NCBI GenBank assembly: GCA_963794325.1
Contig: CAWCDG010000005.1
Location: 160,001 to 224,000, forward strand
Direction: 5' to 3'
Length of the DNA: 64,000 bases
DNA from: an uncultured delta proteobacterium
Lineage (GTDB): Bacteria; Desulfobacterota; Binatia; Binatales; Binataceae
Shown here: piece after piece, positions 1-29,351 of the stretch
How the letters are laid out: each line of letters opens with the position of its first letter
How positions within the stretch are numbered: the first letter of the stretch is position 1
Made by a program: the position numbers and the translations under genes
The notes under the pieces: generated by a model
What the model saw: only the letters and a program-made list of their open reading frames with translations
Database searches by the model: none
What the model was told of the DNA's origin: nothing

Positions 1-482
1 AACTTGACGTACTTGCCCTCGAACGACGCGGCGTCTTCGGTCCACAATTTGCGCATCGCGGCGACAATCTCGGCGGTCTCGGTCCATCTATGGGGGAAAT
101 CGACGCCGAACAGATCGCTCTCTTCGCGCAGCCATCCTGCGCCGATGCCGAACAGCACGCGGCCGCCCGAGTATGCGTCCAGCGTCGCGAACTGCTTGGC
201 GAGCGCGAGAGGTTCATGCTCGGGCACGAGGCAGATACCGGTGGCGAGTTTGAGATTCTTGGTGACGGCGGCGGCCATGCTGAGGGAGATCATCTGATCG
301 GCCATCGTGAAGTACTGCGGCGGAATCGGACCGCCGGTGGGGAATAGCTGCTTGGGATTCGCGGGCATCGCGGGATGCTCAGGGACCCAGATCGATTCGA
401 AGCCGAGCGATTCGGCGACGCGCGCGAATTCCGCGGGGTGAGCATTCTTGCCGGTGAAGGGAGTGAGTAGTCCGATTTTCAT
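1..482 (-). CDS. LLM-class (F420-dependent-type) oxidoreductase, runs off the window edge
   Basis: Missing from the ORF track. Manual translation from ATG at 482 gives MKIGLLTPF...AESLGFESIWVPEH...KLATGICLVPEHEPLALAKQFATLDAYSGGRVLFGIGAGWLREE, typical of the luciferase-like superfamily. AGGAGG RBS upstream. Confidence 0.9.
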   Translation of the reverse strand, partial: MKIGLLTPFTGKNAHPAEFARVAESLGFESIWVPEHPAMPANPKQLFPTGGPIPPQYFTMADQMISLSMAAAVTKNLKLATGICLVPEHEPLALAKQFATLDAYSGGRVLFGIGAGWLREESDLFGVDFPHRWTETAEIVAAMRKLWTEDAASFEGKYVK

Positions 483-518
483 GGTGGCCTCCTCGTTTCT
501 AAGGAAGAAAAGATCCCC

Positions 519-685
519 GATTCTTCGTGCGCTCAAGAATGACACAAAAAAAAGAGGACACAAGAAATCGACGTTGCTCAGATGTCGCTTGAATCCAGAA
601 CCCTCACCGCCGGCGGCTACGCCCGCCGGCCGCCTCTCCCGTGAAATGACGGGCGAGGTAAGATTCGCTGCGCTCAGGAGGACAC
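519..685. repeat. Two degenerate direct copies of a GATTCTTCG..GCTCAGAATGACAC-type palindromic repeat (519-545, 661-685)
   Basis: gattcttcgtgcgctcaagaatgacac and agattcgctgcgctcaggaggacac; same family as the pair at 47363-47451. Confidence 0.6.
601..658. repeat. CCCTCACC-(hairpin)-CCTCTCCC..GGGxGAGG palindromic repeat
   Basis: ccctcacc gccggcggctacgcccgccggc cg cctctcccgt gaaatg acgggcgagg; same architecture as the copies at 8213, 9366 and 55316. Confidence 0.7.
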
Positions 686-810
686 AAAAAAAGTTCTCAC
701 GGGGACGAAGTCCCGCATCCTGTCTTTTTCACTGGGTGCAGGGGTCACCCCTGCCCAAGGGTGTGGAACCCACGGTGGGTTCCGCATTCAATCAAGTGAT
801 TTACCCTTCC

Positions 811-1287
811 CTACTCCCAGCCGAAGAAATCTTTTGCGGCGATGAATTTTGCGACGCCGGCGGCTTCGCCTGCCAGGCGGTCGACTTCCTGATCGCCGAC
901 CATGGTTGAGGACGTCAGATCGACGCCGTACATGTCGGCTAGCTCCGTGATCATGCCGCCTTTCGGCTTGCGGCATGCGCAGTGGTCGTCGTCGGTGTGC
1001 GGGCAGATTTGCCATGCCGTCAGAATGCCGCCGAGCTGGTCGTCGAGATCCTCCAATGCGGCTTCCACGTTTTCCGCTTTAAGGCGGCCGCGCGTGATTC
1101 CCGCCTGGTTGGTGACGACAAACATCAGATGGTTGTGCATGGGGCGGAGTTTTTCGGCTACGCCGGGCAGCAGTTCGATTACGATGTTGCCGTTGGCGTC
1201 GAGCGGAATTTCGCGCGACTCGTTGAGCTTGACGAGAGTGCCGCCGAGATCGAAAAACAGCGCCGAGTTGCCATTCGGATTGGCCAT
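811..1287 (-). CDS. HAD-IIIA phosphatase, GmhB/histidinol-phosphatase-like
   Basis: FFDLGGTL, VVTNQAGI, CPH..DDHCACRKPKGGM (Zn site) and MVGD..D motifs; start placed at ATG 1287. Confidence 0.85.
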   Translation of the reverse strand: MANPNGNSALFFDLGGTLVKLNESREIPLDANGNIVIELLPGVAEKLRPMHNHLMFVVTNQAGITRGRLKAENVEAALEDLDDQLGGILTAWQICPHTDDDHCACRKPKGGMITELADMYGVDLTSSTMVGDQEVDRLAGEAAGVAKFIAAKDFFGWE

Positions 1288-1303
1288 TGAAAAAAGCCTT
1301 CGC

Positions 1304-2686
1304 CTAGGCGTGGCGCCAGTCAACGTGGTCGCGAACGTGGGCGAACACTTCGTCCAGGATCTCGACACCCGCCTCGGCTTGCGCTTCAGTGATCACGAGC
1401 GACGGGTTGATTCGAATCTTGGGGAAGTAGGCCATCGTGACCAGCCCACGCTTGAGGCATTCGGCGAAGATCAGCTCGGTGACCTTCTTGCCGAGCAACT
1501 CCTTGGTTTCGAGATCGCGCACCAGCTCGACGCCGATCAGGAGACCCTTGCCGCGGACGTCGCCGATGAACTCGTATTTTTCTTTTAGCTGTACGAGCCG
1601 CGACAGCATCATCGCGCCAACTTTGCGCGAGTTCTCGACCAGGTGCTCGCGCTGAATCGTGCCGATCGTTTCCGAGACCGCGACTGCCGCGAGCGGATTT
1701 CCGCCGTAGCTCGACGATGACGCGCTCGGCTTGCCGAACGGTTCCGCCTTCCCCAGCTCGTCGCTCAGCAGGACTCCCGACACCGGGAAGCCCGAGCCCA
1801 TCCCCTTGCCGACGGTGACGATATCGGGGCGGGTGCCGCTGTGCTCGACGCCCCACCATTTTCCGGTGCGCCCAAAGCCGGTGATCATTTCGTCGGCGAT
1901 CAGCAGCGCGCCGAAATCCTTGGCGACGGATTTAACCGCAGGCAGCCAGTCGTCGGGCGGGATGACGTTGCCGGCGGTGCCCTGCATCGGCTCGGCGACG
2001 ATCGCGGCGAGCGACCCGCCGCTGCTCATCTTGATTTGCTGGCGCGCGAAATCGACGCAGTACAGTCCGCAGTCGGGATACTTCAGCTTGAAGGGGCATC
2101 GATAGCAGTCGGCGTAGGGAACCGTGTACTGGCCGCCTTGCAATGGGCCGTAGCCTTGCTTCGATTCGTCACCGATGAGTCCGAGCACGCCGCCGGTCTT
2201 GCCATGGAAGCCGCCCCAGAAGCTGACAACTTCATGATGGCCGGTTGCGGAACGCGCGAGCCGGAGCGCGGCTTCGACCGCCTCCGCGCCGCCGCTATAT
2301 AGATGTGCGCGATTGAGTCCCGCGGGCGCGACTTCGGCCAGCGCCTTGAAGGCGGCCGCGCGCTCTTTGGTCGCGAAGGTGCCGACCGTCAGCCGCGCCG
2401 CCTGTTTGGACAGCGCCTGCGCCATCCCGGGATGCGCATGGCCGAGACTGGCGACCGCGACGCCCGCAAAGAAATCGACGTAGGTGTTGCCGTCGGCGTC
2501 GGTGAGGGTCGCGCCTTCGCCGTGGTCGAATGCGAGGCCGGCCAGTAGCGAAATTCGCTGGCGGCCGGGGGCGATATACTTCTGTTCGAGGTCGAAGATC
2601 TCTTTCGATTTTGGTCCCGGAACTGCGGTCTTGATCGAAGGAAGTTTTCCGTTGTTACTGTTACCAGTGGTTGTCGTGGTCTTCAA
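1304..2686 (-). CDS. Class III PLP aminotransferase (GabT-like)
   Basis: SGGAEAVEAAL, GGFHGKT, EPMQGTAG, LIADEMITGFGRTG, TVGKGMGSG (PLP lysine). Confidence 0.92.
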   Translation of the reverse strand: MKTTTTTGNSNNGKLPSIKTAVPGPKSKEIFDLEQKYIAPGRQRISLLAGLAFDHGEGATLTDADGNTYVDFFAGVAVASLGHAHPGMAQALSKQAARLTVGTFATKERAAAFKALAEVAPAGLNRAHLYSGGAEAVEAALRLARSATGHHEVVSFWGGFHGKTGGVLGLIGDESKQGYGPLQGGQYTVPYADCYRCPFKLKYPDCGLYCVDFARQQIKMSSGGSLAAIVAEPMQGTAGNVIPPDDWLPAVKSVAKDFGALLIADEMITGFGRTGKWWGVEHSGTRPDIVTVGKGMGSGFPVSGVLLSDELGKAEPFGKPSASSSSYGGNPLAAVAVSETIGTIQREHLVENSRKVGAMMLSRLVQLKEKYEFIGDVRGKGLLIGVELVRDLETKELLGKKVTELIFAECLKRGLVTMAYFPKIRINPSLVITEAQAEAGVEILDEVFAHVRDHVDWRHA

Positions 2687-2727
2687 TTGATGGCGGTCCG
2701 AATCCTTGTTTGAATTTCCGGCGCGGT

Positions 2728-3555
2728 CTAACGCGGGCGGCCGAGCAGACTTATCGCACGGCGCGCGATCGCGCGAGCAGCCGGCGCGCGCACCCGACTG
2801 TAGCTGGGCCAGTCGTTAAAATCGATAATCGCAAACTGATCGCCGCTCAAGACCGCGTCTCCGCCCCATGCGCCCAAGCCCAGCGCCCCGGCTGCCGCGG
2901 AAGCCGCTTCCGACAACGCGCGGACACAGGCCTCGGGGATTTCCTTTTCGTTGTCCTCGGGATGCACGCTGAAATGAGAGCCGCCGCTGACGCCGTAAAA
3001 TTTTATGACGCGGCCGACGACCTCCTGCTGGAGGTAGGCGAAGCGGATTCCTCGACGCGCGAAATCGGCGAGGATCGTTTCGATTTCGGTGCGATCGGCG
3101 GCGCGCTGCACGTCCTCGGGACCGAGCGCGTGCAAGTCCCCGCGCTTGACGAATACGCCCGCCGACAAATCCAGTCCCGCGAGCTTACGCGAGTCGAGTG
3201 GCTCTTCGGCCGGGACTAGCGCGCCTGGCGGAGTCGGCACTCCGGCGCTTTCGAGTCCGGCCGCGAGCAAGTCGCGGTAGCAATTGCGAATCGAGAGCGC
3301 GGAATTAATCGGGATTGCGCCGGCCTGCTCGACTTCGGCCAGCCGCTTGAGAGCGCGCGGCCCCTGGCACATCGGCAGCACGAGATCGGCGCGGATTGGC
3401 GGGCCTGACGCGAAGCTGATCGCGTCGACGGTCTGGACCTCGACGCCCTCGCGCTTCAACTCCGCCATCGTGGCGTCGAGAATCGCGGCGTCGGCCTCGA
3501 CCTTCCCGGGTGAAAACTCGGGTTCCCGATAAATTCCCAAAGCTCGATGGCTCAT
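2728..3555 (-). CDS. ATP-grasp fold protein, ITPK1-like motifs
   Basis: VFVKRGDLH, LQQEVVGRVIKFYGV, LGLGAWGGDAV, IIDFNDWPSY; overlaps the upstream gene by ATGA. Confidence 0.7.
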   Translation of the reverse strand: MSHRALGIYREPEFSPGKVEADAAILDATMAELKREGVEVQTVDAISFASGPPIRADLVLPMCQGPRALKRLAEVEQAGAIPINSALSIRNCYRDLLAAGLESAGVPTPPGALVPAEEPLDSRKLAGLDLSAGVFVKRGDLHALGPEDVQRAADRTEIETILADFARRGIRFAYLQQEVVGRVIKFYGVSGGSHFSVHPEDNEKEIPEACVRALSEAASAAAGALGLGAWGGDAVLSGDQFAIIDFNDWPSYSRVRAPAARAIARRAISLLGRPR

Positions 3556-4277
3556 GGCATCTTCCGTATTGCCAGGCGCGCGGCGTCGAGGTCTGACGCT
3601 TCATCCACGTCGATCGAACCTTCAAGCTCGATCGCATCCAGGCGCATCCCGCGTTCGATGATCAGCGCCAGGAAGCGACGGAGCGCATCGAGTCCCGCGC
3701 GTCGCGCGTCGGCGGCCAAGTCGAAAACCCTGGTCGACAGAACATAGAGTCCCGCCGTGACCATAGAAGTCTGACCTTCGCCCAGCCGCAGGATCAAGCC
3801 ATTCTGTGTTACATCGGCGAAAAGCGGCTTGGCCTCGCCGCGCCATTGCGTGACGGCCAGCACGCCAGCGAAATTTTTATCGCCACATTCCTCGATTTTT
3901 CGAATCGACTCATTAACAAAACTCACCAATTCCATCTGTGGAATTACAGCGTCCACGGTCGATGCGATAAACCATCCGGGCTCGAGCAGCTCGCCGAGTG
4001 CGAGCATCGTTTCCATCGAGTTGGCAGTATCGCGAACGACCAGGCAGAGCGCCGGTGGAATCTCGAGCACCATTTCCTTCGCGCGGCGCGCCGTTTCGGA
4101 ATTGATCACCGCGACGACCGATGACGCACCAGCGTCGAGGAGCGCGCGCGCTTGCCGCGAGAGCATCGCCTCGCCGCCGAGCTGGACGAGCGGCTTGGGG
4201 ATGTCGTCGCGGGTCGAGATGCGCAAACGATCGCCTCGGCCGGCGGCGATGATCGCTCCTTGAAGTGCGATCACCAT
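3552..4277 (-). CDS. Nucleotidyltransferase (NTP_transferase; IPCT/LicC-like)
   Basis: AIIAAGRGDRL...PKPLVQLGG N-terminal motif and C-terminal IDVDEASDL. Confidence 0.85.
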   Translation of the reverse strand: MVIALQGAIIAAGRGDRLRISTRDDIPKPLVQLGGEAMLSRQARALLDAGASSVVAVINSETARRAKEMVLEIPPALCLVVRDTANSMETMLALGELLEPGWFIASTVDAVIPQMELVSFVNESIRKIEECGDKNFAGVLAVTQWRGEAKPLFADVTQNGLILRLGEGQTSMVTAGLYVLSTRVFDLAADARRAGLDALRRFLALIIERGMRLDAIELEGSIDVDEASDLDAARLAIRKMP

Positions 4278-4999
4278 TCGATCAGCGCAACTTCGTCGAT
4301 ACTTCGGATGGTGACGTCGGCGTCGGCGGAATCTTCATCGCGTCGCGGCTCGCTGCATAGCCAGACGGTGCGCATGCCAAGCTTGCGTGCAGGTGCACAA
4401 TCCTTGCTGAGCGAATCGCCGATCATTGCAACCGATTCGGGCGCACATTGTAATTTTTTCAGTGCGGCCTGGTAGATTCCAACTTCGGGTTTAAAAATTT
4501 TGACGCTCGACGAATCAGCGACTGCCGCGAAGAATCGATTCAGCCGCGCTTCTTCGAGGACGCGATCGAGATTTCCGTAGAAGTTGGACACGATGCCCAT
4601 CTTGAAACGGTCTTTTAATGGACCGACGACTTCACGGCTGTGCGAGAGACCGGCCGACGTCTCGCGGACGAAGGATTTGGTGACAGCCTCGACGAATCGA
4701 TGACGCCCGCCCGCGCCGGAATCGTCGAGTACCTTGCGCAGCGGATCGGGACCGCTTTTCCGCAGGTATTCGAATTGATGGCCGACGAGGAAGCGCACCA
4801 GGTCGGTCATCCCGAAGCGCGCGACGACTCTGGTGGCGCCGTAGCCGATTCGCGTCGCATGATCGAAGGCCGGGTCGAGTTCGACGCGCGAGATTTCGAT
4901 TCCGGCGTCGCGGTAACTGGCCAGAAAGCGGTCAAGCCAATGCGCAGGCCCGTCAAGCGTGCCGCCGAAATCGAACAGGAGAGCCGTGATCGTGGCCAT
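4271..4999 (-). CDS. HAD-family hydrolase (class IA)
   Basis: LLFDFGGTLD, GIVSNF, KP..IY, MIGDSLSKDCAPARKLGM. Confidence 0.9.
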   Translation of the reverse strand: MATITALLFDFGGTLDGPAHWLDRFLASYRDAGIEISRVELDPAFDHATRIGYGATRVVARFGMTDLVRFLVGHQFEYLRKSGPDPLRKVLDDSGAGGRHRFVEAVTKSFVRETSAGLSHSREVVGPLKDRFKMGIVSNFYGNLDRVLEEARLNRFFAAVADSSSVKIFKPEVGIYQAALKKLQCAPESVAMIGDSLSKDCAPARKLGMRTVWLCSEPRRDEDSADADVTIRSIDEVALIEW

Positions 5000-5230
5000 G
5001 AAGGGCCAAGTCTATCAGCCGGATTGAGCATCCTCCAGATTCGGTTTCCATCGTTGCTGACCGATCAAACAGGCACTTTTTTGGATAAGAAAAAGACTGG
5101 CCTCGGATGAAAGACGAACTCATAATCAGGGAGTGAGGTTAGTAGCACTACTACTTCCTCTGGCATTACCGCTGTGTTACGGTGGCGCGAGCAACCGAGA
5201 TGGGGGAAACCGGGTTTTAACGAGACGCCA

Positions 5231-6412
5231 TTGATTGAAACTGCTCTAATCGCTGCACCTGACCGCGCGGATAATGCGGTCTTCGGACGCCCGCTTTTGG
5301 AGCGGCTGATGATCAACTGCGAGCGTGCCGGGATTAGACGGTTTGTGGTGGCAGCACCACACAATCGTCATCCGGATGTCGCGCGCGCGATGGGCCGATT
5401 CAAAAATTTGAACACAGTCTCGATGGTCGAATCGTTCGGCGAGATTCTAAATGGCGGTGCGCAGAATTTGGGCATCGACGCGTCGTCGCCGTGCGTGTCG
5501 TTTTCGGGGAACCTGGTATTCGCGAAGTCGCAGCTGAAACGAATACTCGACGCGCATGCCTCCAATCCGCAGTCGATGCATCGGACCGTAAGCGCCGATC
5601 ATGACCACGGCGGGGAAATCGTGACCGGTCCGATCGGCGAGATTCTAAAGAGCGGCGGCATCTCGAACACGGTGTCGATGCCGTCGGCGAGCCTGCTGCC
5701 GTTCGCGCTGAACGGACGCCCTCAGGATCGCGAGGAGGCCGAGCTGCGGCTGGCGAAGTCGATTCGCGAGGAATCGGCGCATAAGGACGCTCCGATGGCG
5801 CGATGGGTGGACCGCAAGATTTCGTGGCGAATCAGCTACTGGCTGGCAACGCAGACGCGCGCCACGCCGAACATGGTCACGGTTACGAATACGATGTTCG
5901 GGCTTTTGTGCGCGTGGATGTTCTCGGTGCCGAATTACTGGATGCGGCTGTTCGCGGCGATTTTCTTTTTGATTTCGATCACGATCGACGGGGTTGACGG
6001 AGAATTGGCGCGGCTCAAAATGATCGAGAGCGATTTCGGCGGCAAGCTCGATGTCTTTACCGACAATATCGTGCATGCCGGGGTATTCGTCGGGCTGCTG
6101 GTCGGATGCTACCGCGTCGAATATAGCCGCGCTTACCTGTATCTGATCCCGATACTACTCGGCGGATTTGCGGCGTGTGCTTATGCGACGTGGCGCGCTT
6201 TCGAAATAAAGGGCGAGCAGGCGGCCCAGTGGCTGGACAAAGTTGATCGATGGAGCGGGCGCGATTTCGCGTACTTGCTCGTGGTATTAGCCTTAATCAA
6301 TCGGATAGAGTTCTTCGCGTGGGGAACAGCCTTCGGCAGCTACGTGTTTGCCGCAGTGCTGATATGGATCACCGGCCAAACCGAATCGTCAATGAAGACT
6401 GAGAGCTTGTAG
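5231..6412 (+). CDS. CDP-alcohol phosphatidyltransferase with a degenerate N-terminal nucleotidyltransferase-like domain
   Basis: TPNMVT and DGVDGELAR...GGKLDVFTD signature, C-terminal TM helices, N-terminal GRPLLERL..AGI. Start uncertain (5174 or TTG 5231). Confidence 0.85.
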   Translation: MIETALIAAPDRADNAVFGRPLLERLMINCERAGIRRFVVAAPHNRHPDVARAMGRFKNLNTVSMVESFGEILNGGAQNLGIDASSPCVSFSGNLVFAKSQLKRILDAHASNPQSMHRTVSADHDHGGEIVTGPIGEILKSGGISNTVSMPSASLLPFALNGRPQDREEAELRLAKSIREESAHKDAPMARWVDRKISWRISYWLATQTRATPNMVTVTNTMFGLLCAWMFSVPNYWMRLFAAIFFLISITIDGVDGELARLKMIESDFGGKLDVFTDNIVHAGVFVGLLVGCYRVEYSRAYLYLIPILLGGFAACAYATWRAFEIKGEQAAQWLDKVDRWSGRDFAYLLVVLALINRIEFFAWGTAFGSYVFAAVLIWITGQTESSMKTESL

Positions 6413-6443
6413 GAAGGAACTGAGGCCTGCAGGCGGAGGAAGT

Positions 6444-7775
6444 ATGAACGGCAAGAAGCCACGAATTCTTTTGGTGCAACCAACCACCGTCCATCTGGAC
6501 GGCACGCCGCACAAGACGCGGTGGCGGCTGATCATGGGGCTGATGATTCCGCTGATGGCGGGACTCACGCCTGACGATTACGACGTGACGCTGTGCGACG
6601 AGCGCCTCGAGAACATCAACTTCGACGGCGGATGGGACCTGGTCGGCATGACGACGACGATTGGCGCGTCGTTGCGCGCGTACCAGCTCGGCGACGAGTT
6701 CCGCAAACGCGGCATCCCGGTCGTGTTCGGCGGCTTCCATGCGACGCTGCAGACCGAAGAAGCGCTGCATCATTGCGACGCAGTCGTGAAGGGCGAGGCC
6801 GACCTGGTCTGGCCCGAGCTGCTGCAGGATTGGCGCGATGGCAAGCTCAAGCAGGTTTACAAGGCCGACAAGGTCCACGATCTGAAGAACCTGCCGCGCC
6901 CGCGTCACGAGCTGCTCAAACTGAATCGCTACCTGTTCAAGGCGGTGCCGGTGCAGGCGAGCCGCGGATGCCCGTACCGATGCTCGTTCTGCGAGATCCC
7001 GGTGTTCTACGACGGCGCCTATCGCACGCGGCCGATCGAGGACATCGTCGAAGAGATCAAGCAGGTCATGAAGGTGACCGGCTTCAAGCGCTTCCAGTTT
7101 ATCGACGATCAGATCACCGGCAAGCACAAGTTCGCGCGCGAGCTGTTCAAGGCGCTCGAGCCACTCAACATCCGCTTCTCATGCTTGTGGACGATCAATT
7201 CGAATCACGACGACGAGCTGCTCGACCTGGCGGCCAAGGCGGGAATCTTCCACGTCAATATCGGCGTGGAATCGATCAGCCAGGACAGCCTGCTGTCGAT
7301 GAACAAGATTCAGAATCACGCGAACCAATACAAGAAGCTGCTCAAGAAGATGGAGAAATACGGGATCTACTACTCGCTGAATTTCCTGTTCGGGCTGGAA
7401 GAGGATCGTCCAGGGGTCTTCGACGACACGCTGAAGTTCCTGCACGAGGTCAAAGCGCCCGAGGCGTTCTTCAACACCGTCACGCCGCGCGTCGGCACGC
7501 CGATGCGCACGCAGCTCGAGAACGAAGGCCGCGTGATTATCCCTGACGCGGATTTGTACACGAATAACTTCCGTTGCATGTTCGTGCCCAAGAACATGTC
7601 GCCGCAGGAAGTCGAAGAAGGCGTGTGGCGATGCACCAAGGAGTTCTACTCGCTGAAGTCGATGTTCCGCCGGCTGCTGATGCCACCGGGCAAGTTCACC
7701 TGGCAGGGCCTGACCGAGAACATGCTCTTCTACTGGGGTGCGAAGCGTCAGATCGATCCGGTTGACTACTATTAG
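6444..7775 (+). CDS. B12-binding radical SAM protein
   Basis: N-terminal cobalamin-type domain (DLVGMT..VVFGGFHAT..GEAD) and SRGCPYRCSFC CxxxCxxC motif. Confidence 0.9.
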   Translation: MNGKKPRILLVQPTTVHLDGTPHKTRWRLIMGLMIPLMAGLTPDDYDVTLCDERLENINFDGGWDLVGMTTTIGASLRAYQLGDEFRKRGIPVVFGGFHATLQTEEALHHCDAVVKGEADLVWPELLQDWRDGKLKQVYKADKVHDLKNLPRPRHELLKLNRYLFKAVPVQASRGCPYRCSFCEIPVFYDGAYRTRPIEDIVEEIKQVMKVTGFKRFQFIDDQITGKHKFARELFKALEPLNIRFSCLWTINSNHDDELLDLAAKAGIFHVNIGVESISQDSLLSMNKIQNHANQYKKLLKKMEKYGIYYSLNFLFGLEEDRPGVFDDTLKFLHEVKAPEAFFNTVTPRVGTPMRTQLENEGRVIIPDADLYTNNFRCMFVPKNMSPQEVEEGVWRCTKEFYSLKSMFRRLLMPPGKFTWQGLTENMLFYWGAKRQIDPVDYY

Positions 7776-7787
7776 GCCGACTCGGAT

Positions 7788-8102
7788 TTGATCCTAAAGA
7801 CCCTTGCGATTCTGATACTGGCCGCAGCGCTCGAAGTAGGCGGGGATGCGCTGGTGCGGATAGGACTGCATAGCTACGGCTACTCGCTGGCAGCCGGTGC
7901 GTTCGCGCTGTTCGCATACGGAATCCTGGTCAATCAAAGCGGCGTCGATTTCAACCGCCTGATGGGAATCTACATCGCGGTGTTCTTCGTGGTGTCGCAG
8001 GCGATCTCGTTCCTGTTCTTCAAGCAAATCCCCGACGACAAAATAATTCTGGGCGGAGGCTTCATAGTAACCGGCGGCCTCGTGATTTTGTTGATGACGT
8101 GA
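7788..8102 (+). CDS. Small 4-TM membrane protein (YnfA/SMR-like)
   Basis: 104 aa, four hydrophobic segments, AALEVGG with a membrane-embedded Glu. Confidence 0.65.
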   Translation: MILKTLAILILAAALEVGGDALVRIGLHSYGYSLAAGAFALFAYGILVNQSGVDFNRLMGIYIAVFFVVSQAISFLFFKQIPDDKIILGGGFIVTGGLVILLMT

Positions 8103-8120
8103 ATCCGGCTCCTTCCGCTC

Positions 8121-8262
8121 CCTCGCCCCATGTGGGGAGAGGGTTGGGGTGAGGGACATTTGTGCGGCGCGGTTCTCTGTTGCGCCGCACATCCGGAATC
8201 TTCAGCAAATTTGGTCCCTCACCCGCCGCTCGAAGACGAGCCGCGACCTCTCCCCACGTGGA
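8121..8262. repeat. Inverted pair of GTCCCTCACC..CCTCTCCC repeats enclosing a hairpin
   Basis: 8121-8157 cctcgccccatgtggggagagggttggggtgagggac; inner hairpin tgtgcggcgc..gcgccgcaca; 8213-8259 ggtccctcacccgccgctcgaagacgagccgcgacctctccccacgt. Confidence 0.75.
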
Positions 8263-8460
8263 GGCAATGATTTCGCTTCCCTCAAGGAAGAGACAAAGAG
8301 TGAGCATCGGCGGCGTTGCACTCTGTTCCGCAACCTAACCCCTACCTGCTCCGTCACCAGACCAAAACTTCACGTCGCATCGATTCGCGCATAGAATCGA
8401 ACGCGCAGAAACCTCTGATCTGTCGGTGAACGCACTTCTTCCGAAAAGCGAGACAAATTC

Positions 8461-9318
8461 ATGATCGAAGCAAAGTACACTCTGGACTACAAACTGATCG
8501 GTACTCAAATCGATCGACTGCTCGAAAGTGTCGTCAATAGGGCTGAGCGAGAATGGCCAAAATCATCGGACCCACCCACTAACGAGGCTTATACGGTAAT
8601 GATTGGCACTTTGCGGAGTGTTGCGAATACCTTTAAGACGGTCCGATACTTGTGCGCAGAAAAATCTCCAGATTGGCGTCACCGTCCGGAGCTCGCTCTC
8701 GCAACACCGCCGCTCGTGCGAACAATTCTCGATTCGTTCTACACGGTTGTTTTTGTATTTGAGGATATTCGTCCTCGTTCGGAATGGTACATGCATTCGG
8801 GATGGAGGGAACTTGCGGAGTATGTTGATCGAGTCAAGCGTGACTACGGTTCAGATCCAGTCTGGAAGGAATACTTAGACGAAACCGTCCCCAGATTGGA
8901 GCAACTTAGAATTATGATCGGTAGGCCGGAAAGCGAGCTAAGGAAGACGATTTGGTGGCCGACACCTCCGCAAATGAAAAACTTTGCTTTGCGCGCTGAT
9001 ACCATCAAGTTTTTCGAATATTTGCGCGATTGGTATTACAAAGAGTTCTCAGCTGTTTCGCATCTTAGCTTGCCAGGTCTCATTCAATCCGTAACGCCGT
9101 TAATGCAAGGTGTCGATGTAGCGAAGGTCGAACAGTTACGCGGTTACTACTTTAAGCAGGTCACAATTTTGTTGATGGCTATCTATTCCGAGTTTGAAGC
9201 TGAGTTAACGCCCGGGGTCTCGGCGGATCTCAAATACGTGTGGCAAATGTTGCACCAGCACTATCCGTTCGCCAAAGAGATTTATCAGCACCGCAACTAC
9301 GATTCCCGACTCAGTTGA
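8461..9318 (+). CDS. Hypothetical protein, possibly DUF5677/HEPN-like
   Basis: 285-aa ORF, visibly more AT-rich than neighbours; helical-looking, with LVRTILDS and YYKEFSAVSH motifs. Family call tentative. Confidence 0.6.
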   Translation: MIEAKYTLDYKLIGTQIDRLLESVVNRAEREWPKSSDPPTNEAYTVMIGTLRSVANTFKTVRYLCAEKSPDWRHRPELALATPPLVRTILDSFYTVVFVFEDIRPRSEWYMHSGWRELAEYVDRVKRDYGSDPVWKEYLDETVPRLEQLRIMIGRPESELRKTIWWPTPPQMKNFALRADTIKFFEYLRDWYYKEFSAVSHLSLPGLIQSVTPLMQGVDVAKVEQLRGYYFKQVTILLMAIYSEFEAELTPGVSADLKYVWQMLHQHYPFAKEIYQHRNYDSRLS

Positions 9319-9365
9319 TTTCGCGGCGGCGCGAGCAGCCCTCTGTCGCATTCGATTTCCTCTAA

Positions 9366-9422
9366 GGTCCCTCACCCGCCGCTCGAAGACGAGCGTCGAC
9401 CTCTCCCCACGTTGGGAGAGGG
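9366..9422. repeat. Direct copy of the 8213 repeat
   Basis: ggtccctcacccgccgctcgaagacgagcgtcgacctctccccacgttgggagaggg; 45 of the first 47 nt match 8213-8259. Confidence 0.85.
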
Positions 9423-9430
9423 AATGCGGG

Positions 9431-10785
9431 GTACAGACCGGGAGGATCGGTAACAGAATAGACCGGCAGGATGGGTAACAGATTGAATGCTACGGCAGGA
9501 GGAGCGAAGCGATGCCGTGGCGGGAGGTCTGTTCGATGGACGAGAAGATGCGGTTGATGGTGGCGCTGTCGGCCGAAGAGGAGAGCGTGACGGAGCTGTG
9601 CGAGGACTTCGGCATCAGCCGCAAGACCGCGTACAAGTGGTGGGCGCGTTACCGGCAGTTCGGCCCTGAGGGACTGAAGGAACGATCGCACGCGCCGGCG
9701 CTGGTGCCATGGGCGATATGCGACGCCCAGGCCGAGGCGATCATCGCAGTGCGCCGGGCGCATCCGAGTTGGGGACCGAAGAAGCTGCGCGCCAGACTCA
9801 GCCAAAGCGCGCCCAACCAGAGCTGGCCGGCGCCGAACACCATCGGAGAGTTGCTGCGCCGCGAACAACTCAGCCAGCCGCGCAAGCGGCGGCGCAGCGC
9901 GCGACCGTCGCCGATCCCCTTGCGCACGGCATTGGCGCCCAACGACATCTGGTGTACCGATTTCAAGGGCCCGTTCCATACCCAGGACGGCATGCGCTGC
10001 GATCCCTTCACTCTGACCGACGCCTACAGCCGCTACCTGTTATGCGTCAAGGCGGTCAATAAAGCTGGCTACGACGACTGCCGCAGCGAGCTGGAGCGGG
10101 TGTTTCGGGAGTACGGCCTGCCACGCGCGATCCGCTCGGATAACGGTCCACCGTTCGCCTCGAGCGGGGTGACCGGACTCAGTCGGCTGTCGGTGTGGTG
10201 GCTAAAGCTCGGCATCATGCCGGAGCGGATCGAACCGGGCAGGCCAGAGCAGAACGGGCGGCACGAACGGATGCACAAGACGCTCAAGGCCGAATGCGCC
10301 AGTCCGCCGCAAGCCGACCGTGGCTCGCAGCAGAATCGCTTCGATCAGTTCCGCGAAGAGTTCAATCAGCAGCGGCCACACGAGGCGCTGGGTCAGACCG
10401 CGCCGGCGACGCACTATACACCGTCGCCGCGCAGCTATCCGTCCAGGCTCGAGGATCCCGCCTATCCGGCCGACTACCAGCCGCGGCGCGTGCGCCACAC
10501 CGGCGATATCAAATGGCAGGGGGAATCGGTCTTCCTGAGCGAGACTTGAGCAATGAGGTAGTAGGAATAGTTGAAACCGATGAGGGAGATGCGGTGGCCT
10601 ACTACGGACCGCTGATACTCGGGCTCATCGACGGCGTCAGCTTAAAACTGCGCCGCCTGCAGCCTGCCAGCAGTTCCACAGTCGGGCGAGGGGGGCAGCC
10701 CCCCTCGCGCTCCTCCCCGTCAAACTCAGAAATAGTGTTACCTATCATGCCGGTCTAAAGTGTTACCGATCATCCCGGTCGCTCA
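9431..10785 (+). mobile_element. IS481-family insertion sequence
   Basis: Imperfect inverted ends with internal repeats: left gaccgggaggatcggtaaca..gaccggcaggatgggtaaca, right tgttacctatcatgccggtc..tgttaccgatcatcccggtc. Possible CGGG duplication (9427-9430, 10786-10789). Exact ends uncertain by a few nt. Confidence 0.85.
9512..10758 (+). pseudogene. IS481 DDE transposase, frameshifted near 10545
   Basis: MPWRE.. HTH start, WCTDFKG, IRSDNGPPF, EQNGRHERMHKTLK. Stop at 10549; the expected tail LSNEVVGIVETDEG..YYGPLILG continues in another frame. Confidence 0.8.
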
Positions 10786-10789
10786 CGGG

Positions 10790-11635
10790 CTACGGGTGAA
10801 GCACGACGTTGTCGATCAAGCGGGTTTTGCCGACGCGGGCGGCGATCGCGATCAGGATTGGACGATCGAGCGACGGGTGGCGCGCGAGAGTTTCGGCGTC
10901 CACGGCTTCGACATATTCGATCGTAATGCCTTTCATTCGCTTCAGCACGCGGGTTGCCGCGAAGACGATTTCCTCGGCGCAGCATGGGTCGGTGCGATGC
11001 TGGTCGCGGGCGGCGCGGAGCGCGAGGCTTAGTGCGAGTGCGTCTTCGCGCTCGGTTGGCGACAGGTATGCATTGCGCGAGCTCATCGCGAGCCCGTCTT
11101 TTTCGCGAACGATCGGTACGGGTAGGATTTCGACGTCGAAGTTCAAGTCGCGGACCATCTTCTGAATCGCGCGGAGTTGCTGGAAATCTTTTTCGCCGAA
11201 TACGGCGATATGCGGTTTGACGATGTTGAAGAGCTTGGCGACCACCGTCGTCACGCCGCGGAAGTGGCCGGGGCGATGCGCGCCGCACAGACCCTCAGTA
11301 ATCTCGCCGGCGTCCACCCAGCTTTGCGCGTCAGGCGAGTACATCGCAGCGGGCTCGGGCGCGAACACTACGTCCACCGGCACAGTCTCGAGCATCGCGC
11401 AGTCGCGCCCGAAGTTGCGCGGGTAGCGCGCGAAGTCCTCGCCGGGACCGAACTGTGTCGGGTTGACGAAAATCGACGCGACCAGAACCGACGACTGACG
11501 GCGGCCTTCGCGCATCAGGGTCAGATGACCGTCGTGCAGAAAGCCCATCGTTGGAACGAGTGCGATTCGTTCGCCACTTTGACGAGCGCTTTCCGCGTAG
11601 CGGGTCATTTCGTCGGGCGAGGTAATGACGTTCAT
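10790..11635 (-). CDS. panC: Pantoate-beta-alanine ligase
   Basis: VPTMGFLHDGH, SIFVNPTQF, RPGHFRGV, FGEKDFQQ, GLAMSSRN, RLIDN. Confidence 0.97.
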   Translation of the reverse strand: MNVITSPDEMTRYAESARQSGERIALVPTMGFLHDGHLTLMREGRRQSSVLVASIFVNPTQFGPGEDFARYPRNFGRDCAMLETVPVDVVFAPEPAAMYSPDAQSWVDAGEITEGLCGAHRPGHFRGVTTVVAKLFNIVKPHIAVFGEKDFQQLRAIQKMVRDLNFDVEILPVPIVREKDGLAMSSRNAYLSPTEREDALALSLALRAARDQHRTDPCCAEEIVFAATRVLKRMKGITIEYVEAVDAETLARHPSLDRPILIAIAARVGKTRLIDNVVLHP

Positions 11636-27246: not shown

Positions 27247-27353
27247 TCGGATTTCTCGACACCTGCCTGAAACGTGAGTACGTGGTAGGATTGGCCGGTG
27301 CGCTGATTTTCCAGGGACCTAATCACGAACTGAACTTTTCTTATTCGCCGGCG

Positions 27354-29342
27354 ATGCCTTCCTATCAAGCACCAACTGATTCCCGGCTCGCCTCGTCCGG
27401 GCGGCGGATGAGCCACATCATAATCGAAGACGTGACACCCTCGGTTGACGGCGGCCGTTATCCGGCCAAGCGGATCGCCGGTGAGCCATGCGTCGTCGAA
27501 GCGGACATCTTTCGCGACGGACATCAAGTGTTGCGTGCCGCGGTCAAATGGCGCCGCAAGAGCGACGAGGTTTTCGACGAGGCACCGATGGCGGCGCTCG
27601 ACAACGATCGATGGCGTGGCGAGTTCATCCCTACCGACAACGCGCGCTACGTTTTCACGATCGAAGCATGGACCGACCTGTTTGCCTCGTGGCTCGCGGA
27701 TTTCACCAAGAAAGTGAAAGCCGCGCGACCGGTCGCATCCGATATTCTGGAGGGGATCGCACTCGTTGAGAAAATGATCTCGAGTGCGCGTGGATCTGAT
27801 CGTGCTTCGCTCGAGCGAGTGCTCGCGCAATTGCGCAAGACGAACGACGGAGCGGTAGCGCTCGCGGCGATCAGCGATGCGGAGATTTCCACTGTCGCAG
27901 AACGCGTCGGCGAGCGCTCTGGTCTGACGAGATTCGAGCCGACGCTGGAGCTGGTCGTCGATCGCGAGAAGGCTCGCTACGGCACCTGGTACGAAATGTT
28001 CGTACGCTCGCAAGGGATCGAACCCGGGAAATCCGGCACCTTCCACGACGCCGAGCGCCGGCTGCCCGAACTGCGCGACCTCGGCTTCGATGTAATTTAC
28101 CTTCCCCCGATTCACCCAATCGGTCACACCAATCGCAAGGGTCCCGGCAATTCTCTCAACGGCGCGTCGAATTCTCCGGGCAGCCCGTGGGCGATTGGCA
28201 GCGAGGCTGGTGGACATACCGCGATCGATCCGTCGATTGGCACGCTCGGCGATTTCGATCGCTTCAACGCCGCCGCCAACCGCCTGGGAATGGAGGTTGC
28301 GCTCGATTTCGCGATACAGTGCTCGCCCGACCATCCATGGGTGCGTGAGCATCCGAATTGGTTTCAGCATCGGCCCGACGGCAGCATCAAGTACGCGGAG
28401 AATCCGCCGAAGGAATACGAGGATATCTATCCGATCGATTTCGACACTGCCGATCAGCGGGGCTTGTATGAAGCGCTGCTGGGGGTGCTGAGATTCTGGC
28501 GCGATCACGGGGTGAAGATCTTTCGCGTCGATAACCCGCATACCAAGCCGGTGCAATTCTGGAACTGGCTAATCAATGAAGTACAGACTGCCAATCCGGA
28601 AGTGATTTTTCTGGCGGAAGCGTTCACGCGTCCGAAGATGATGAAGGCGCTGGCCAAGGCGGGCTTTACTCAGTCCTATACCTACTTCACCTGGCGTAAT
28701 AGCAAGTTCGAACTGACTGACTATTTGACCGAGCTCACACAAACACCGATGAAGGAGTATTTTCGGCCTAACTTCTTCACCAATACTCCCGACATTCTCT
28801 CGCCGGTGCTGCAGACTGGCGGGCGGACTGCTTTCAAGATGAAGCTCGTGCTCGCCGCAACACTGTCACCCTCGTACGGTATCTACAGCGGATTCGAATT
28901 GTGCGAGAACCGGGCAGTGCCGGGCACCGAAGAATACCTGAACTCCGAGAAGTACGAAATCAAAGTGCGCGATTGGAACCAGCCCGGCAACATCAAGGAG
29001 TTCATCGGGCGCGTCAACGCGATTCGGCGCGAGAACCGCGCGCTGCAACAGTTTCTTAATCTCCAGTTTCTAACCACCGACAACGACCAGATCCTCTTTT
29101 ACGCGAAGACTACGCAAGACAAGCACAACGTCATCCTGATCGCCGTCAATCTGGATCCGCTGAACGCGCACTACTGCACCGCGTTCGTACCGCCGGAGGT
29201 GGTTGGAGTCGCGCCGGGACGCAGCTATCGAGTCACGGATCTACTGACCGGCGCGAAATATGTGTGGTCTGATCGTAACTACGTGCGGCTCGATCCCAAT
29301 GTCGAACCAGCGCACATTCTGCGCGTTGAAGAGCGCCTCTGA
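27354..29342 (+). CDS. glgE: Alpha-1,4-glucan:maltose-1-phosphate maltosyltransferase
   Basis: ADIFRDGH, WYEMFVRS, YAENPPKEYEDIYP, FRVDNPHTKP, AEAFTRP, SEKYE; start uncertain (27282-27408). Confidence 0.95.
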   Translation: MPSYQAPTDSRLASSGRRMSHIIIEDVTPSVDGGRYPAKRIAGEPCVVEADIFRDGHQVLRAAVKWRRKSDEVFDEAPMAALDNDRWRGEFIPTDNARYVFTIEAWTDLFASWLADFTKKVKAARPVASDILEGIALVEKMISSARGSDRASLERVLAQLRKTNDGAVALAAISDAEISTVAERVGERSGLTRFEPTLELVVDREKARYGTWYEMFVRSQGIEPGKSGTFHDAERRLPELRDLGFDVIYLPPIHPIGHTNRKGPGNSLNGASNSPGSPWAIGSEAGGHTAIDPSIGTLGDFDRFNAAANRLGMEVALDFAIQCSPDHPWVREHPNWFQHRPDGSIKYAENPPKEYEDIYPIDFDTADQRGLYEALLGVLRFWRDHGVKIFRVDNPHTKPVQFWNWLINEVQTANPEVIFLAEAFTRPKMMKALAKAGFTQSYTYFTWRNSKFELTDYLTELTQTPMKEYFRPNFFTNTPDILSPVLQTGGRTAFKMKLVLAATLSPSYGIYSGFELCENRAVPGTEEYLNSEKYEIKVRDWNQPGNIKEFIGRVNAIRRENRALQQFLNLQFLTTDNDQILFYAKTTQDKHNVILIAVNLDPLNAHYCTAFVPPEVVGVAPGRSYRVTDLLTGAKYVWSDRNYVRLDPNVEPAHILRVEERL

Positions 29343-29351
29343 GTTCCGATC

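Follow-up and report, generated by a model that had tools for sequence, protein, structure and literature searches.

A conserved divergent gene cluster of Binataceae that may encode an aminocyclitol-phosphate lipid pathway

A 64,000-nucleotide stretch from an uncultured delta proteobacterium of the family Binataceae (GenBank assembly GCA_963794325.1, contig CAWCDG010000005.1, forward-strand positions 160,001 to 224,000; hereafter the window) carries seven intact open reading frames (ORFs) at positions 811-7775, arranged as two divergent operons. One arm encodes a nucleotidyltransferase (NTP-transferase), an ATP-grasp protein, a class III aminotransferase, and two HAD hydrolases (HAD-IA and HAD-IIIA), and the other encodes a CDP-alcohol phosphotransferase and a B12-binding-domain radical S-adenosylmethionine (SAM) enzyme. 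The question raised by this locus is what these enzymes make together. An initial annotation had described the same ORFs and arms, which the ORF list, the translations, and family scans confirm, and had proposed that they form an undescribed (amino)cyclitol-phosphate lipid or solute pathway. The best protein matches are to Candidatus Binatus/Binataceae. On balance, we favor the view that the cluster represents, in Binataceae, a widespread but biochemically uncharacterized Kennedy-type pathway, in which a cyclitol-phosphate head group, here an aminocyclitol phosphate, would be built in the cytoplasm and attached by the membrane CDP-alcohol phosphotransferase, probably to a lipid. We infer each substrate, the order of the steps, the nucleotide, and the acceptor from the gene identities, folds, motifs, synteny, and gene fusions observed, and from a pairing of aminotransferase and dehydrogenase genes that is seen in other phyla.

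Gene neighborhoods were surveyed by a genome scan with an alignment of 111 ATP-grasp relatives (A1), which was also used for structure modeling, a profile search, and a Pfam scan of its members. With one genome taken per species, the scan gave at least 594 confirmed matches, and the best 80 loci (numbered with an L) were kept: 18 from Binataceae, 24 from other phyla that contain the aminotransferase gene, and 38 that do not. ORFs called in these loci were searched with the seven window proteins and with proteins from the loci themselves, inositol-phosphate synthase (MIPS) was sought with both long (Bacteroidota-type) and short-type queries, and additional Pfam scans covered 10 diverse loci and, for 12 Binataceae loci, the flanking sequence. 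A locus is called well-covered below if it has at least 4 kb on either side; this applies to 13 of the 18 Binataceae loci, 14 of the non-Binataceae aminotransferase loci, and 28 of the loci without aminotransferase.

The cluster recurs across the 18 Binataceae loci at 42-92% protein identity. Genes for the NTP-transferase, the HAD-IA hydrolase, and the aminotransferase are each found at 17 of them, that for the CDP-alcohol transferase at 16, and those for the HAD-IIIA hydrolase and the radical SAM enzyme at 15 each. Within the 13 well-covered loci, the first three and the HAD-IIIA gene are always present, the transferase and radical SAM genes are each present at 12, and all seven genes stand together at 12. 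This arrangement is far from chance. Counted as a unit, the five-gene arm is present at 17 of the 18 loci and at all 13 that are well-covered. The initial annotation had stated that a lack of co-occurrence of the two arms in other genomes would refute its proposal; in the present survey the arms do co-occur, and the proposal is not refuted on this point.

Natural gene fusions point the same way, since they join soluble enzymes of the cluster with one another and also connect its two arms. When 11 long members of the ATP-grasp family were scanned, 8 proved to be fusions of an NTP-transferase to an ATP-grasp domain (among them P0161, 802 amino acids, with the order HAD, NTP-transferase, ATP-grasp), 1 was a fusion of an ATP-grasp domain to a CDP-alcohol transferase, and 2 had no Pfam match. 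In the ATP-grasp-transferase fusion (P0234, 700 amino acids) the ATP-grasp domain comes first, and the transferase part aligns to residues 185-407 of the window transferase (28% identity, E = 6e-22). As separate genes, the NTP-transferase and ATP-grasp genes adjoin each other at most of the 80 loci.

The core of the cluster is also found outside Binataceae. The 38 loci without aminotransferase, which are mostly from Bacteroidota with Melioribacter and Ignavibacterium, contain the NTP-transferase (36 loci), the CDP-alcohol transferase (35), the HAD-IA hydrolase (35), MIPS (20), and the LPG_synthase_TM family (19), and none contains a GFO/IDH/MocA-family dehydrogenase. Cultured carriers of this variant include Sphingobacterium multivorum, Dyadobacter spp., Parabacteroides leei, and Duncaniella muris. 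Bacteroidota loci L028 and L042 have the order NTP-transferase, ATP-grasp, CDP-alcohol transferase, LPG_synthase_TM, HAD; the ATP-grasp gene lies between the NTP-transferase and transferase genes in L068 and L038 as well, and MIPS closes the Bacteroidota order NTP-transferase, ATP-grasp, CDP-alcohol transferase, HAD. Bacteroidota orthologs score 59-98 bits (NTP-transferase) and 77-107 bits (HAD) against the window proteins. Their transferases (∼305-320 amino acids), which do not have the N-terminal domain of the window protein, score 23-48 bits against it and are of a different subtype, whereas L065 scores 356 bits. In Duncaniella muris DSM 103720 (L043, 9244-15325), the two inositol-lipid routes have their genes intermixed, in the order NTP-transferase, ATP-grasp, PgpA, a 272-amino acid CDP-alcohol transferase, PAP2_3, a 314-amino acid CDP-alcohol transferase, and HAD, with a patatin-like phospholipase gene adjoining.

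Part of this core is already in print. The main text of Heaver et al. (2022, PMC9246714) describes, in many Bacteroides and Prevotella, an "alternate cluster" beside MIPS that is composed of an NTP-transferase (BVU_RS13095), a CDP-alcohol phosphatidyltransferase (BVU_RS13105), and a HAD protein (BVU_RS13115), all three of which have counterparts in the window (Table 1). The Bacteroidetes inositol-lipid cluster to which the initial annotation had referred is real and homologous to the one studied here. The same main text mentions none of the terms ATP-grasp, RimK, ligase, aminotransferase, or dehydrogenase. The gene order of L028 and L042 matches the gaps in the BVU_RS13095/13105/13115 series, so the unmentioned BVU_RS13100 would be the ATP-grasp gene. 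The core is therefore a known, unproven prediction dating from 2022, and to this extent the description of the pathway as undescribed no longer holds; it does hold for the ATP-grasp component, for the aminotransferase/dehydrogenase variant found in several phyla, and for the Binataceae additions, all of which are absent from the open-access literature that was searched. Among the open-access papers and preprints searched, none was found on inosamine, aminoinositol, or aminocyclitol phospholipids, on further work concerning the alternative route, or on how Binatia metabolize inositol.

The evidence for an amino group in the product comes from the aminotransferase and its neighbors. This gene directly follows the ATP-grasp gene at 41 of the 80 loci (17 of the 18 in Binataceae and 24 elsewhere), which represent at least five phyla. 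The 24 non-Binataceae loci come from Verrucomicrobiota, Gemmatimonadota, Ignavibacteriota, Syntrophobacteraceae, and related metagenome-assembled genomes, and contain the CDP-alcohol transferase (18 loci), LPG_synthase_TM (11), Mla genes (8), and MIPS (7, 6 of the long type and a short one in L030). A GFO/IDH/MocA dehydrogenase gene is found at 20 of these 24 loci and at 14 of the 14 that are well-covered, compared with 0 of the 28 well-covered loci without aminotransferase. In the ignavibacterial locus L050, for example, the order is NTP-transferase, MlaE/F/D, LPG_synthase_TM, transferase, ATP-grasp, aminotransferase, dehydrogenase, HAD, MIPS. When six such dehydrogenases were compared with NCBIfam, IolG was the best or second-best match (61-104 bits, below the cutoff of 355). 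An aminotransferase and a dehydrogenase that travel together fit an oxidize-then-transaminate pair, inositol to inosose to inosamine, and, since these clusters also encode MIPS in part, an inosamine would be the expected product. We propose that the aminotransferase aminates a keto-cyclitol. In aminocyclitol antibiotic and rhizopine pathways, scyllo-inosamine is handled in the same order by an inositol dehydrogenase, an aminotransferase, and a kinase.

Family models do not assign the window aminotransferase to a known activity. No NCBIfam cutoff was reached (best, 358.6 against 552 bits), including those for GABA, ornithine, and acetylornithine aminotransferases (TIGR00700, 261.1 against 506.65; TIGR00707, 264.7 against 410.05; TIGR01885, 222.4 against 378.4). 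Its best PDB match scored 251 bits, and cluster-linked orthologs in other phyla scored 404-597 bits. The initial annotation had left room for a plain GABA or ornithine transaminase unlinked to the other genes; the scores and the position of this gene behind the ATP-grasp gene show that it is no such stray enzyme. The cyclitol named in that annotation gains indirect support from the relatives, which hold MIPS and GFO/IDH/MocA genes in the same clusters, although no feature of the window identifies the polyol.

The enzyme predicted to form the final phosphodiester is the 412-amino acid CDP-alcohol phosphotransferase. The Pfam match places it in this superfamily (PF01066, 52.3 bits against a cutoff of 22, residues 231-387), and the catalytic motif D-x2-DG-x2-AR-x8-G-x3-D-x3-D is intact; it reads DGVDGELARLKMIESDFGGKLDVFTD and is invariant or nearly so in alignment A2. 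The protein is composed of a nucleotidyltransferase-like cytoplasmic domain (residues 1 to ∼200) and a membrane catalytic domain (∼205 to 412). By hhalign, residues 34-132 of the first domain match the cluster NTP-transferases (probability 78%, E = 1.8e-5), in an alignment that starts past the nucleotide loop. In residues 1-200 there was no Pfam or NCBIfam NTP-transferase match and, by eye, no glycine-rich loop, the loop position reading AAPDRADN where the separate NTP-transferase has AAGRGDRL. From these features, the N-terminal domain is read as a vestigial, degenerate cytidylyltransferase domain. The separate NTP-transferase has the GxGxR loop and weakly matches, over its full length, the IPCT half of IPCT/DIPPS (31.4 bits), and we propose it as a candidate CTP:cyclitol-phosphate cytidylyltransferase. 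Downstream of the radical SAM gene, L007 (1996-3171) and L009 (796 onward) contain a second, paralogous CDP-alcohol transferase gene of the long type (244-256 bits).

Whether the acceptor is a lipid or a soluble alcohol bears directly on this enzyme. Its closest solved relatives are the makers of soluble phosphodiesters (AF2299, E = 2.4e-14; IPCT/DIPPS, 3.7e-6), its best NCBIfam match is IPCT/DIPPS, and it keeps an IPCT-like N-terminal domain, all of which suit a compatible solute like di-myo-inositol phosphate (DIP) built on an aminocyclitol. In such a pathway, the CDP-cyclitol would be joined to a phosphorylated soluble alcohol and a HAD protein would remove the extra phosphate, as in the conversion of DIPP to DIP; a second phosphatase-like gene is indeed present at 15 of the 18 Binataceae loci, none of which contains LPG_synthase_TM, and the window holds trehalose and α-glucan genes, although these are general context only. 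The IPCT/DIPPS match is, however, far below its cutoff (NF041135, 71.8 against 580 bits), and the gene for MlaC, a periplasmic lipid carrier, lies in the divergent gap directly upstream of the transferase gene at 5 of the 18 Binataceae loci (L001, L004, L007 as fragments, L009, and L012). In addition, PlsY is encoded beside the arm in L006, relatives of the cluster lie among Mla and LPG_synthase_TM genes, and the homologous cluster of Bacteroidota tracks the inositol sphingolipid PI-DHC, which, according to the main text of the same study, was found by high-performance liquid chromatography-mass spectrometry in two species without a BT-like cluster (PMC9246714). These neighbors and PI-DHC were counted for a lipid, which we consider roughly twice as probable as a solute; the solute pathway as a whole is unlikely. 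In L007, an IS1595 transposase gene interrupts the MlaC region.

The 275-amino acid ATP-grasp protein belongs to an unnamed family. As a single sequence, it had no Pfam or NCBIfam match, and a phmmer search of PDB gave nothing at E ≤ 10. When AlphaFold was run with A1, the predicted local distance difference test (pLDDT) score was 96.9, versus 37 from the single sequence, and Foldseek returned at least 500 matches of this model to ATP-grasp structures, with template modeling (TM) scores of 0.6-0.74. As modeled, the protein is a true ATP-grasp enzyme, and its three-domain fold is certain. Within A1, Lys-137, Lys-185, and Asn-247 are invariant and Asp-233 and Asp-245 are at least 90% conserved. 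An exhaustive search of representative sequences found 859 representative clusters of the family at E ≤ 1e-3, in several phyla.

In a tree of 77 of 81 ATP-grasp sequences (L001, L004, L060, and L063 were left out because their ORFs were of aberrant length), the Binataceae sequences fall together in a single clade (100/100), and in a quick tree this clade groups with Syntrophobacteraceae-type loci (Shimodaira-Hasegawa-like approximate likelihood ratio test, SH-aLRT, 97). A long branch (100/100) separates the Binataceae/Syntrophobacteraceae-type, Verrucomicrobiota, and Gemmatimonadota sequences from those of Bacteroidota and Ignavibacteriota, and the tree largely tracks taxonomy. Two loci titled Bifidobacterium (L041) and [Ruminococcus] lactaris (L062) have ATP-grasp proteins that nest in the Verrucomicrobiota and Prevotellaceae clades, with similar gene orders, and are likely mis-binned or contaminant contigs.

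The sequence of the ATP-grasp family leans weakly toward inositol-phosphate kinases. The best matches of the A1 profile in PDB were Arabidopsis ITPK4 (E = 1.5e-7) and PsnB (1.8e-7), followed by ITPK1 (∼1.5e-4) and RimK (2e-4 and weaker), and the family shares with ITPK the motif IDxN(D)xPSF/Y around the Mg-binding D-x-N. We propose that the protein is a candidate ITPK-like kinase acting on a cyclitol or cyclitol phosphate. ITPK1 is reported to phosphorylate the MIPS product I(3)P1 and also to accept I(1)P1 (PMC6900528).

A ligase that attaches a carboxylate, for instance an amino acid, to an amino or hydroxyl group of the head group, with MIPS supplying the phosphate for CDP activation, would account for several of the same observations. 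The top Foldseek matches (E = 1e-13 to 1e-11) are D-Ala-D-Ala ligases (Ddl, VanA-type), LysX/ArgX, PsnB, and DcsG together with maize ITPK1 (ZmITPK1), and Ddl, LysX, and PsnB score at least as well as ITPK1, so the fold comparison does not part kinase from ligase. In the A1 profile, ITPK aligns only at positions ∼179-272, the C-terminal third, whereas RimK aligns over the full length. The Pfam scan of the 111 members found the kinase family Ins134_P3_kin (PF05770) in just 5 of them (best, 3e-5) and not in the window protein, compared with ATPgrasp_ST in 5 and RimK in 3. One source labels relatives "glutathione synthase/RimK-type ligase-like," and LPG_synthase_TM, the membrane region of aminoacyl-lipid synthases, is encoded nearby at 30 of the 62 non-Binataceae loci. 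However, inositol-phosphate kinases gave the best E values in two separate searches, and the ATP-grasp gene is equally conserved at the 38 loci without aminotransferase, which offer no obvious amine or carboxylate substrate; this retention was counted for the kinase. Fusion to a nucleotidyltransferase also suits consecutive kinase and cytidylyltransferase steps, by analogy with the Kennedy pathway. We consider the ligase improbable.

Within Binataceae, no other protein of the cluster comes close to the radical SAM enzyme in conservation, as judged from the median identity of each window protein to its orthologs (radical SAM 88%, aminotransferase 78%, HAD-IIIA 65%, ATP-grasp 60%, transferase 54%, NTP-transferase 51%, HAD-IA 48%). 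Its gene begins 31 nt past the transferase gene and is adjacent to it at 15 of the 18 Binataceae loci. The protein contains the motif CPYRCSFC; its B12-binding PF02310 match (29.1 bits) is under the cutoff of 32.1, but this domain is precomputed in most of 120 listed homologs and is called in 68-91% of the members of four listed look-alike clusters. NCBIfam scores were below cutoff for BchE (105 against 481), HpnJ (TIGR03471, 82 against 577.6), and AprD4 (55 against 500), and AprD4 is the nearest PDB entry (E = 1.6e-10). AprD4 is a diol dehydratase that makes a ketone on an aminoglycoside by dehydration. The window enzyme may act on the head group by C-methylation, dehydration, or rearrangement. 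Its type, like the HAD-IIIA hydrolase, is seen in Binataceae loci only among the best 80, and relatives at ∼55% identity are found in Geobacter, Nitrospirota, and Elusimicrobia.

A prominent radical SAM enzyme raises the possibility that the head group is some other aminated polyol, or a carbocycle made by this enzyme in the manner of the ring-forming or ring-contracting HpnJ, and not a MIPS-made cyclitol at all. Such a head group would account for the absence of MIPS and the dehydrogenase from Binataceae clusters: the radical SAM gene is present at 12 of the 13 well-covered loci, compared with MocA near 4 of these 13 and MIPS near 1 of all 18. A true HpnJ equivalog (739 against 577.6 bits, 7088-8548) heads the cluster of L020, HpnJ-like genes (177 bits) follow MIPS at 4 Bacteroidales loci, and the ketone-forming AprD4 is the nearest solved relative. 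Against this, the window enzyme itself reaches only 82 bits on HpnJ and 55 on AprD4, absence from a 20-kb neighborhood is not absence from the genome, and L013 and L022 contain both MocA and radical SAM genes. We regard such a head group as very unlikely. L020 comes from a cultured sulfate reducer, Desulfoferrobacter suflitae DRH4; there, the HpnJ gene is directly upstream of HAD, NTP-transferase, ATP-grasp, aminotransferase, and MocA genes, and MlaC, a second radical SAM gene, and a long-type CDP-alcohol transferase are encoded nearby.

Least probable among the four alternatives weighed is an ordinary phosphatidylinositol-type pathway, with the aminotransferase, the second HAD protein, and the radical SAM enzyme as neighbors that have unrelated jobs in amino-acid metabolism, in heptose or histidine metabolism, and in separate lipid or cofactor modification. 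The aminotransferase is indeed generic by family models, the radical SAM family has its relatives in distant genomes and evolves at another rate (88% versus 48-78%), and L014 shows that the arms can part, but the positions of these genes speak against unrelated jobs: the aminotransferase directly after the ATP-grasp gene and paired with a dehydrogenase outside Binataceae, the HAD-IIIA gene after the aminotransferase gene at 15 of the 18 Binataceae loci, and the radical SAM gene beside the transferase gene. Three further analogies were rejected, namely a phosphonate pathway (sub-threshold PbfA and PhpK-like matches; no phosphoenolpyruvate (PEP)-mutase-type gene was found among the scanned window ORFs, and relatives carry MIPS), F420 (CofC/CofF-like) or cobamide nucleotide-loop (CobY, E = 0.0036) synthesis (the core occurs with MIPS in Bacteroidota, and an F420-type gene is near only 6 of 19 Binataceae sequences), and hopanoid side-chain genes (HpnO/HpnJ-like, with scores far under the cutoffs).

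The two HAD proteins differ in distribution. HAD-IA orthologs are present at 71 of the 80 loci and correspond to the "BV HAD" type gene of the Bacteroidota clusters, and the HAD-IIIA gene, found after the aminotransferase gene at all 13 well-covered Binataceae loci, is absent from the other 62 loci. The initial annotation had called the latter GmhB-like. Membership in the HAD-IIIA subfamily stands (TIGR01656, 86.2 against 84.15; TIGR01662, 70.3 against 44.6 bits), and the closest PDB entries are heptose-1,7-bisphosphate phosphatases (E = 6e-15 to 1e-14) that share its CPH..C.CRKP motif, but the scores are below the GmhB equivalog cutoffs (NF006506, 84.3 against 178; TIGR00213, 59.5 against 149.6) and the DxD motif is absent. 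Motif I reads FDLGGTL in this protein (DL[AG]GTL at least 90% conserved in the HAD-IIIA set) and FDFGGTLD in the HAD-IA protein (FDxGGT at least 90% conserved in 66 orthologs across phyla), with Gly at the Asp+2 position in both. Ordinary HAD phosphatases carry a second Asp here, the general acid of the DxD motif. The probable start of the HAD-IIIA protein, by alignment with 14 orthologs, is the ATG at 1287 (158 amino acids).

Put together, these assignments suggest a pathway in which inositol phosphate would come from a synthase encoded elsewhere and be oxidized to a keto-cyclitol, in other phyla by the GFO/IDH/MocA dehydrogenase, after which the class III aminotransferase would turn the ketone into an aminocyclitol (inosamine). 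The ATP-grasp protein, as an ITPK-like kinase, would place the phosphate of the future diester, the NTP-transferase would make the CDP-aminocyclitol, and the AF2299/DIPPS-like transferase would join the phospho-aminocyclitol to an alcohol, for which a diacylglycerol-type lipid is the most likely candidate. The HAD proteins would remove or move auxiliary phosphates, and the B12-type radical SAM enzyme would modify the head group further. The cyclitol could be aminated either while free or after its linkage to CDP. The constant core (ATP-grasp, nucleotidyltransferase, CDP-alcohol phosphotransferase, and HAD) would thus phosphorylate, activate with CTP, and transfer. MIPS yields the 3-phosphate and phosphatidylinositol-type lipids are 1-linked, so a kinase would be needed despite MIPS; dephosphorylation and re-phosphorylation, or a bisphosphate trimmed by a HAD protein, would use all four core proteins.

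Several observations weigh against this pathway. The 64-kb window contains no MIPS of either type (phmmer at E ≤ 1e-5 and E ≤ 1e-3, and Pfam of the window ORFs), as the initial annotation had noted, and no GFO/IDH/MocA dehydrogenase. MIPS lies within 10 kb of the cluster at only 1 of the 18 Binataceae loci (L017, a short-type gene ∼9 kb away), compared with 20 of the 38 loci without aminotransferase, so the adjacency to MIPS that marks the Bacteroidota cluster is missing here. With MIPS and MocA this scarce, the cyclitol and the keto step are borrowed for Binataceae from relatives. The arms can part, since L014 has the five-gene arm without the other within 10 kb, and in L016 the ATP-grasp gene is at the contig edge and is followed by unrelated genes. 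Lacking the Asp+2 general acid, both HAD proteins may be wrongly labeled phosphatases, with a chemistry other than simple hydrolysis. Finally, the Bacteroidota pathway that serves as the anchor, described in Bacteroides (Phocaeicola) vulgatus and Prevotella as a putative alternative inositol lipid cluster, is itself an unproven prediction (PMC9246714). The inference of the initial annotation is, in sum, a reasonable and now better-grounded hypothesis that is not proven, and its interpretation is partly supported.

A broader proposal is more tentative, and we hold it with well under even confidence: at least five phyla (Binatota, Verrucomicrobiota, Gemmatimonadota, Ignavibacteriota, and Thermodesulfobacteriota) might make aminocyclitol (phospho-inosamine) membrane phospholipids, a class not detected to date, by a Kennedy-type route, the kinase might be a large bacterial sister family of eukaryotic and Asgard ITPK, and the highly conserved radical SAM enzyme of Binataceae might replace or add to the chemistry at the head group, by deoxygenation, C-methylation, or a rearrangement of the ring, to give a further, lineage-specific lipid.

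The coordinates of the cluster are collected in Table 1. Neighboring genes overlap by 7 and 4 nt or are separated by gaps of 41, ∼16, and 31 nt; this spacing is consistent with co-transcription in two operons. In positions 1-11000, Rfam gave no match at E ≤ 0.1 in the divergent gap, and thus no riboswitch there; the sole item found was a sub-threshold "antizyme frameshift element" (8108-8161, 29.3 against 40 bits), taken as chance. Predicted promoters and terminators were no more numerous than in shuffled sequence, and no σ70-like site was called in the divergent gap. A terminator-like hairpin past the HAD-IIIA gene (717-698) was given no weight.

Table 1. Features of the seven-gene cluster, in window positions
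Feature	Position	Strand	Evidence
HAD-IIIA hydrolase, GmhB/HisB-N-like	811..1368	-	TIGR01656, TIGR01662
Class III (omega-type) pyridoxal phosphate-dependent aminotransferase	1304..2686	-	PF00202, 314.5 bits
ATP-grasp enzyme, unnamed family, 275 amino acids	2728..3555	-	AlphaFold model, Foldseek, PDB profile search
Nucleotidyltransferase (NTP-transferase), AAGRGDRL loop	3552..4277	-	PF12804, 36.2 bits; PF00483, 26.3 bits
HAD-IA hydrolase	4271..4999	-	PF13419, 57.4 bits; PF00702, 55.5 bits
Divergent intergenic region, 174 bp	5000..5173		Between the two operons
CDP-alcohol phosphotransferase, AF2299/DIPPS type, 412 amino acids	5174..6412	+	PF01066, 52.3 bits
B12-binding-domain radical SAM enzyme	6444..7775	+	PF04055, 66.3 bits; PF02310, 29.1 bits

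Elsewhere, the window contains housekeeping genes: panCB, coaX, GlgE/TreS-type α-glucan genes, transporters, and thiamine genes. The panC/panB genes border the cluster in the window and at several Binataceae loci (in L011, L013, and L015, panC is close beside the radical SAM gene), and from this recurrent flank the cluster occupies a stable chromosomal site. In the window, an IS481-family insertion sequence (9436-10780) separates the radical SAM gene from panC; its transposase gene (9512-10549) scores 221 bits on NF033577 (cutoff 224), and its 45-nt terminal inverted repeats (9436-9480 and 10736-10780) are 87% complementary. The adjoining stretch from 8000 to 9500 is low in GC (0.51-0.52, compared with ∼0.60-0.65 around it) and may be a second small inserted element; it contains a 285-amino acid ORF (8461-9318) with no Pfam or NCBIfam match, and 24-nt inverted repeats (8119-8142 and 9400-9423) lie on either side of this ORF.

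On the other side of the cluster, the HAD-IIIA gene is closely followed on the minus strand by a gene for a luciferase-like (LLM) oxidoreductase of the F420 type, which lies at 3-563 and runs past the window edge (TIGR03619, 162.7 against 166.9 bits). An LLM gene is also present within ∼1-8 kb in L004, L007, L008, L015, and L017, and may be mere synteny or a stand-in for the absent dehydrogenase. Farther away, genes for GlgE, a TreS-Mak fusion, and GlgB, which make α-glucan from trehalose, are located at 27282-34983 and are followed by sugar ABC transporter, GH15, and α-amylase-family genes (35.5-45.7 kb); the region from 27282 to 45.7 kb looks like ordinary carbohydrate storage and compatible-solute metabolism.

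Inositol lipids are considered rare in bacteria. The present analysis adds to the predicted alternative route a conserved component that was missing from it, an ATP-grasp enzyme that is probably a kinase, and it extends the range of the core pathway beyond Bacteroidota, with at least 594 genomic matches of which the best 80 span several phyla. The gene content of the aminotransferase variant predicts an amino-substituted cyclitol head group, and no such lipid was found in the open-access literature searched. If the prediction is correct, the amino group would make an anionic lipid zwitterionic, a change relevant to the charge of membranes, to how cells resist cationic peptides, and to the lipid biomarkers of soil, where Binatia are common. 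An ITPK-like kinase family in bacteria, if confirmed, would also bear on the origin of eukaryotic inositol-phosphate signaling.

Among the known systems closest to the cluster is the one predicted by Heaver et al., with which it shares a homologous NTP-transferase, HAD-IA protein, and CDP-alcohol phosphotransferase and the same Kennedy-type logic via a CDP-cyclitol; as described in the main text of that paper (PMC9246714), the Bacteroidota cluster consists of the three named genes and MIPS, whereas the window adds an aminotransferase, a second HAD protein, and a B12-type radical SAM enzyme, has no adjacent MIPS, and uses another transferase subtype. ITPK1 and ITPK4 of eukaryotes and Asgard archaea (PMC6900528) resemble the window family in their ATP-grasp fold, in the Mg-site motif near the C terminus, and in being linked through the genome to the synthesis of inositol phosphates, but the sequences align in the C-terminal third only, and the window family is bacterial and shorter (∼275 amino acids). 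HpnJ and AprD4, which act on cyclitol or aminoglycoside moieties, have the domain make-up that is predicted for the window radical SAM enzyme, which by its scores belongs to neither family. IPCT/DIPPS and AF2299 of Archaeoglobus fulgidus, like the window transferase, combine a nucleotidyltransferase-like cytoplasmic domain with a six-helix CDP-alcohol domain that has the same motif; in the window, the active cytidylyltransferase would be a separate gene, the N-terminal domain has no glycine-rich loop, and the partners include an aminotransferase and an ATP-grasp enzyme. Inosamine pathways follow the same dehydrogenase, aminotransferase, and kinase logic as the variant clusters L050, L018, L021, L024, and L080, but they use DegT/StsC-type aminotransferases and other kinase folds, whereas the window combines a class III aminotransferase with an ATP-grasp enzyme and would deliver the product to a CDP-alcohol phosphotransferase.

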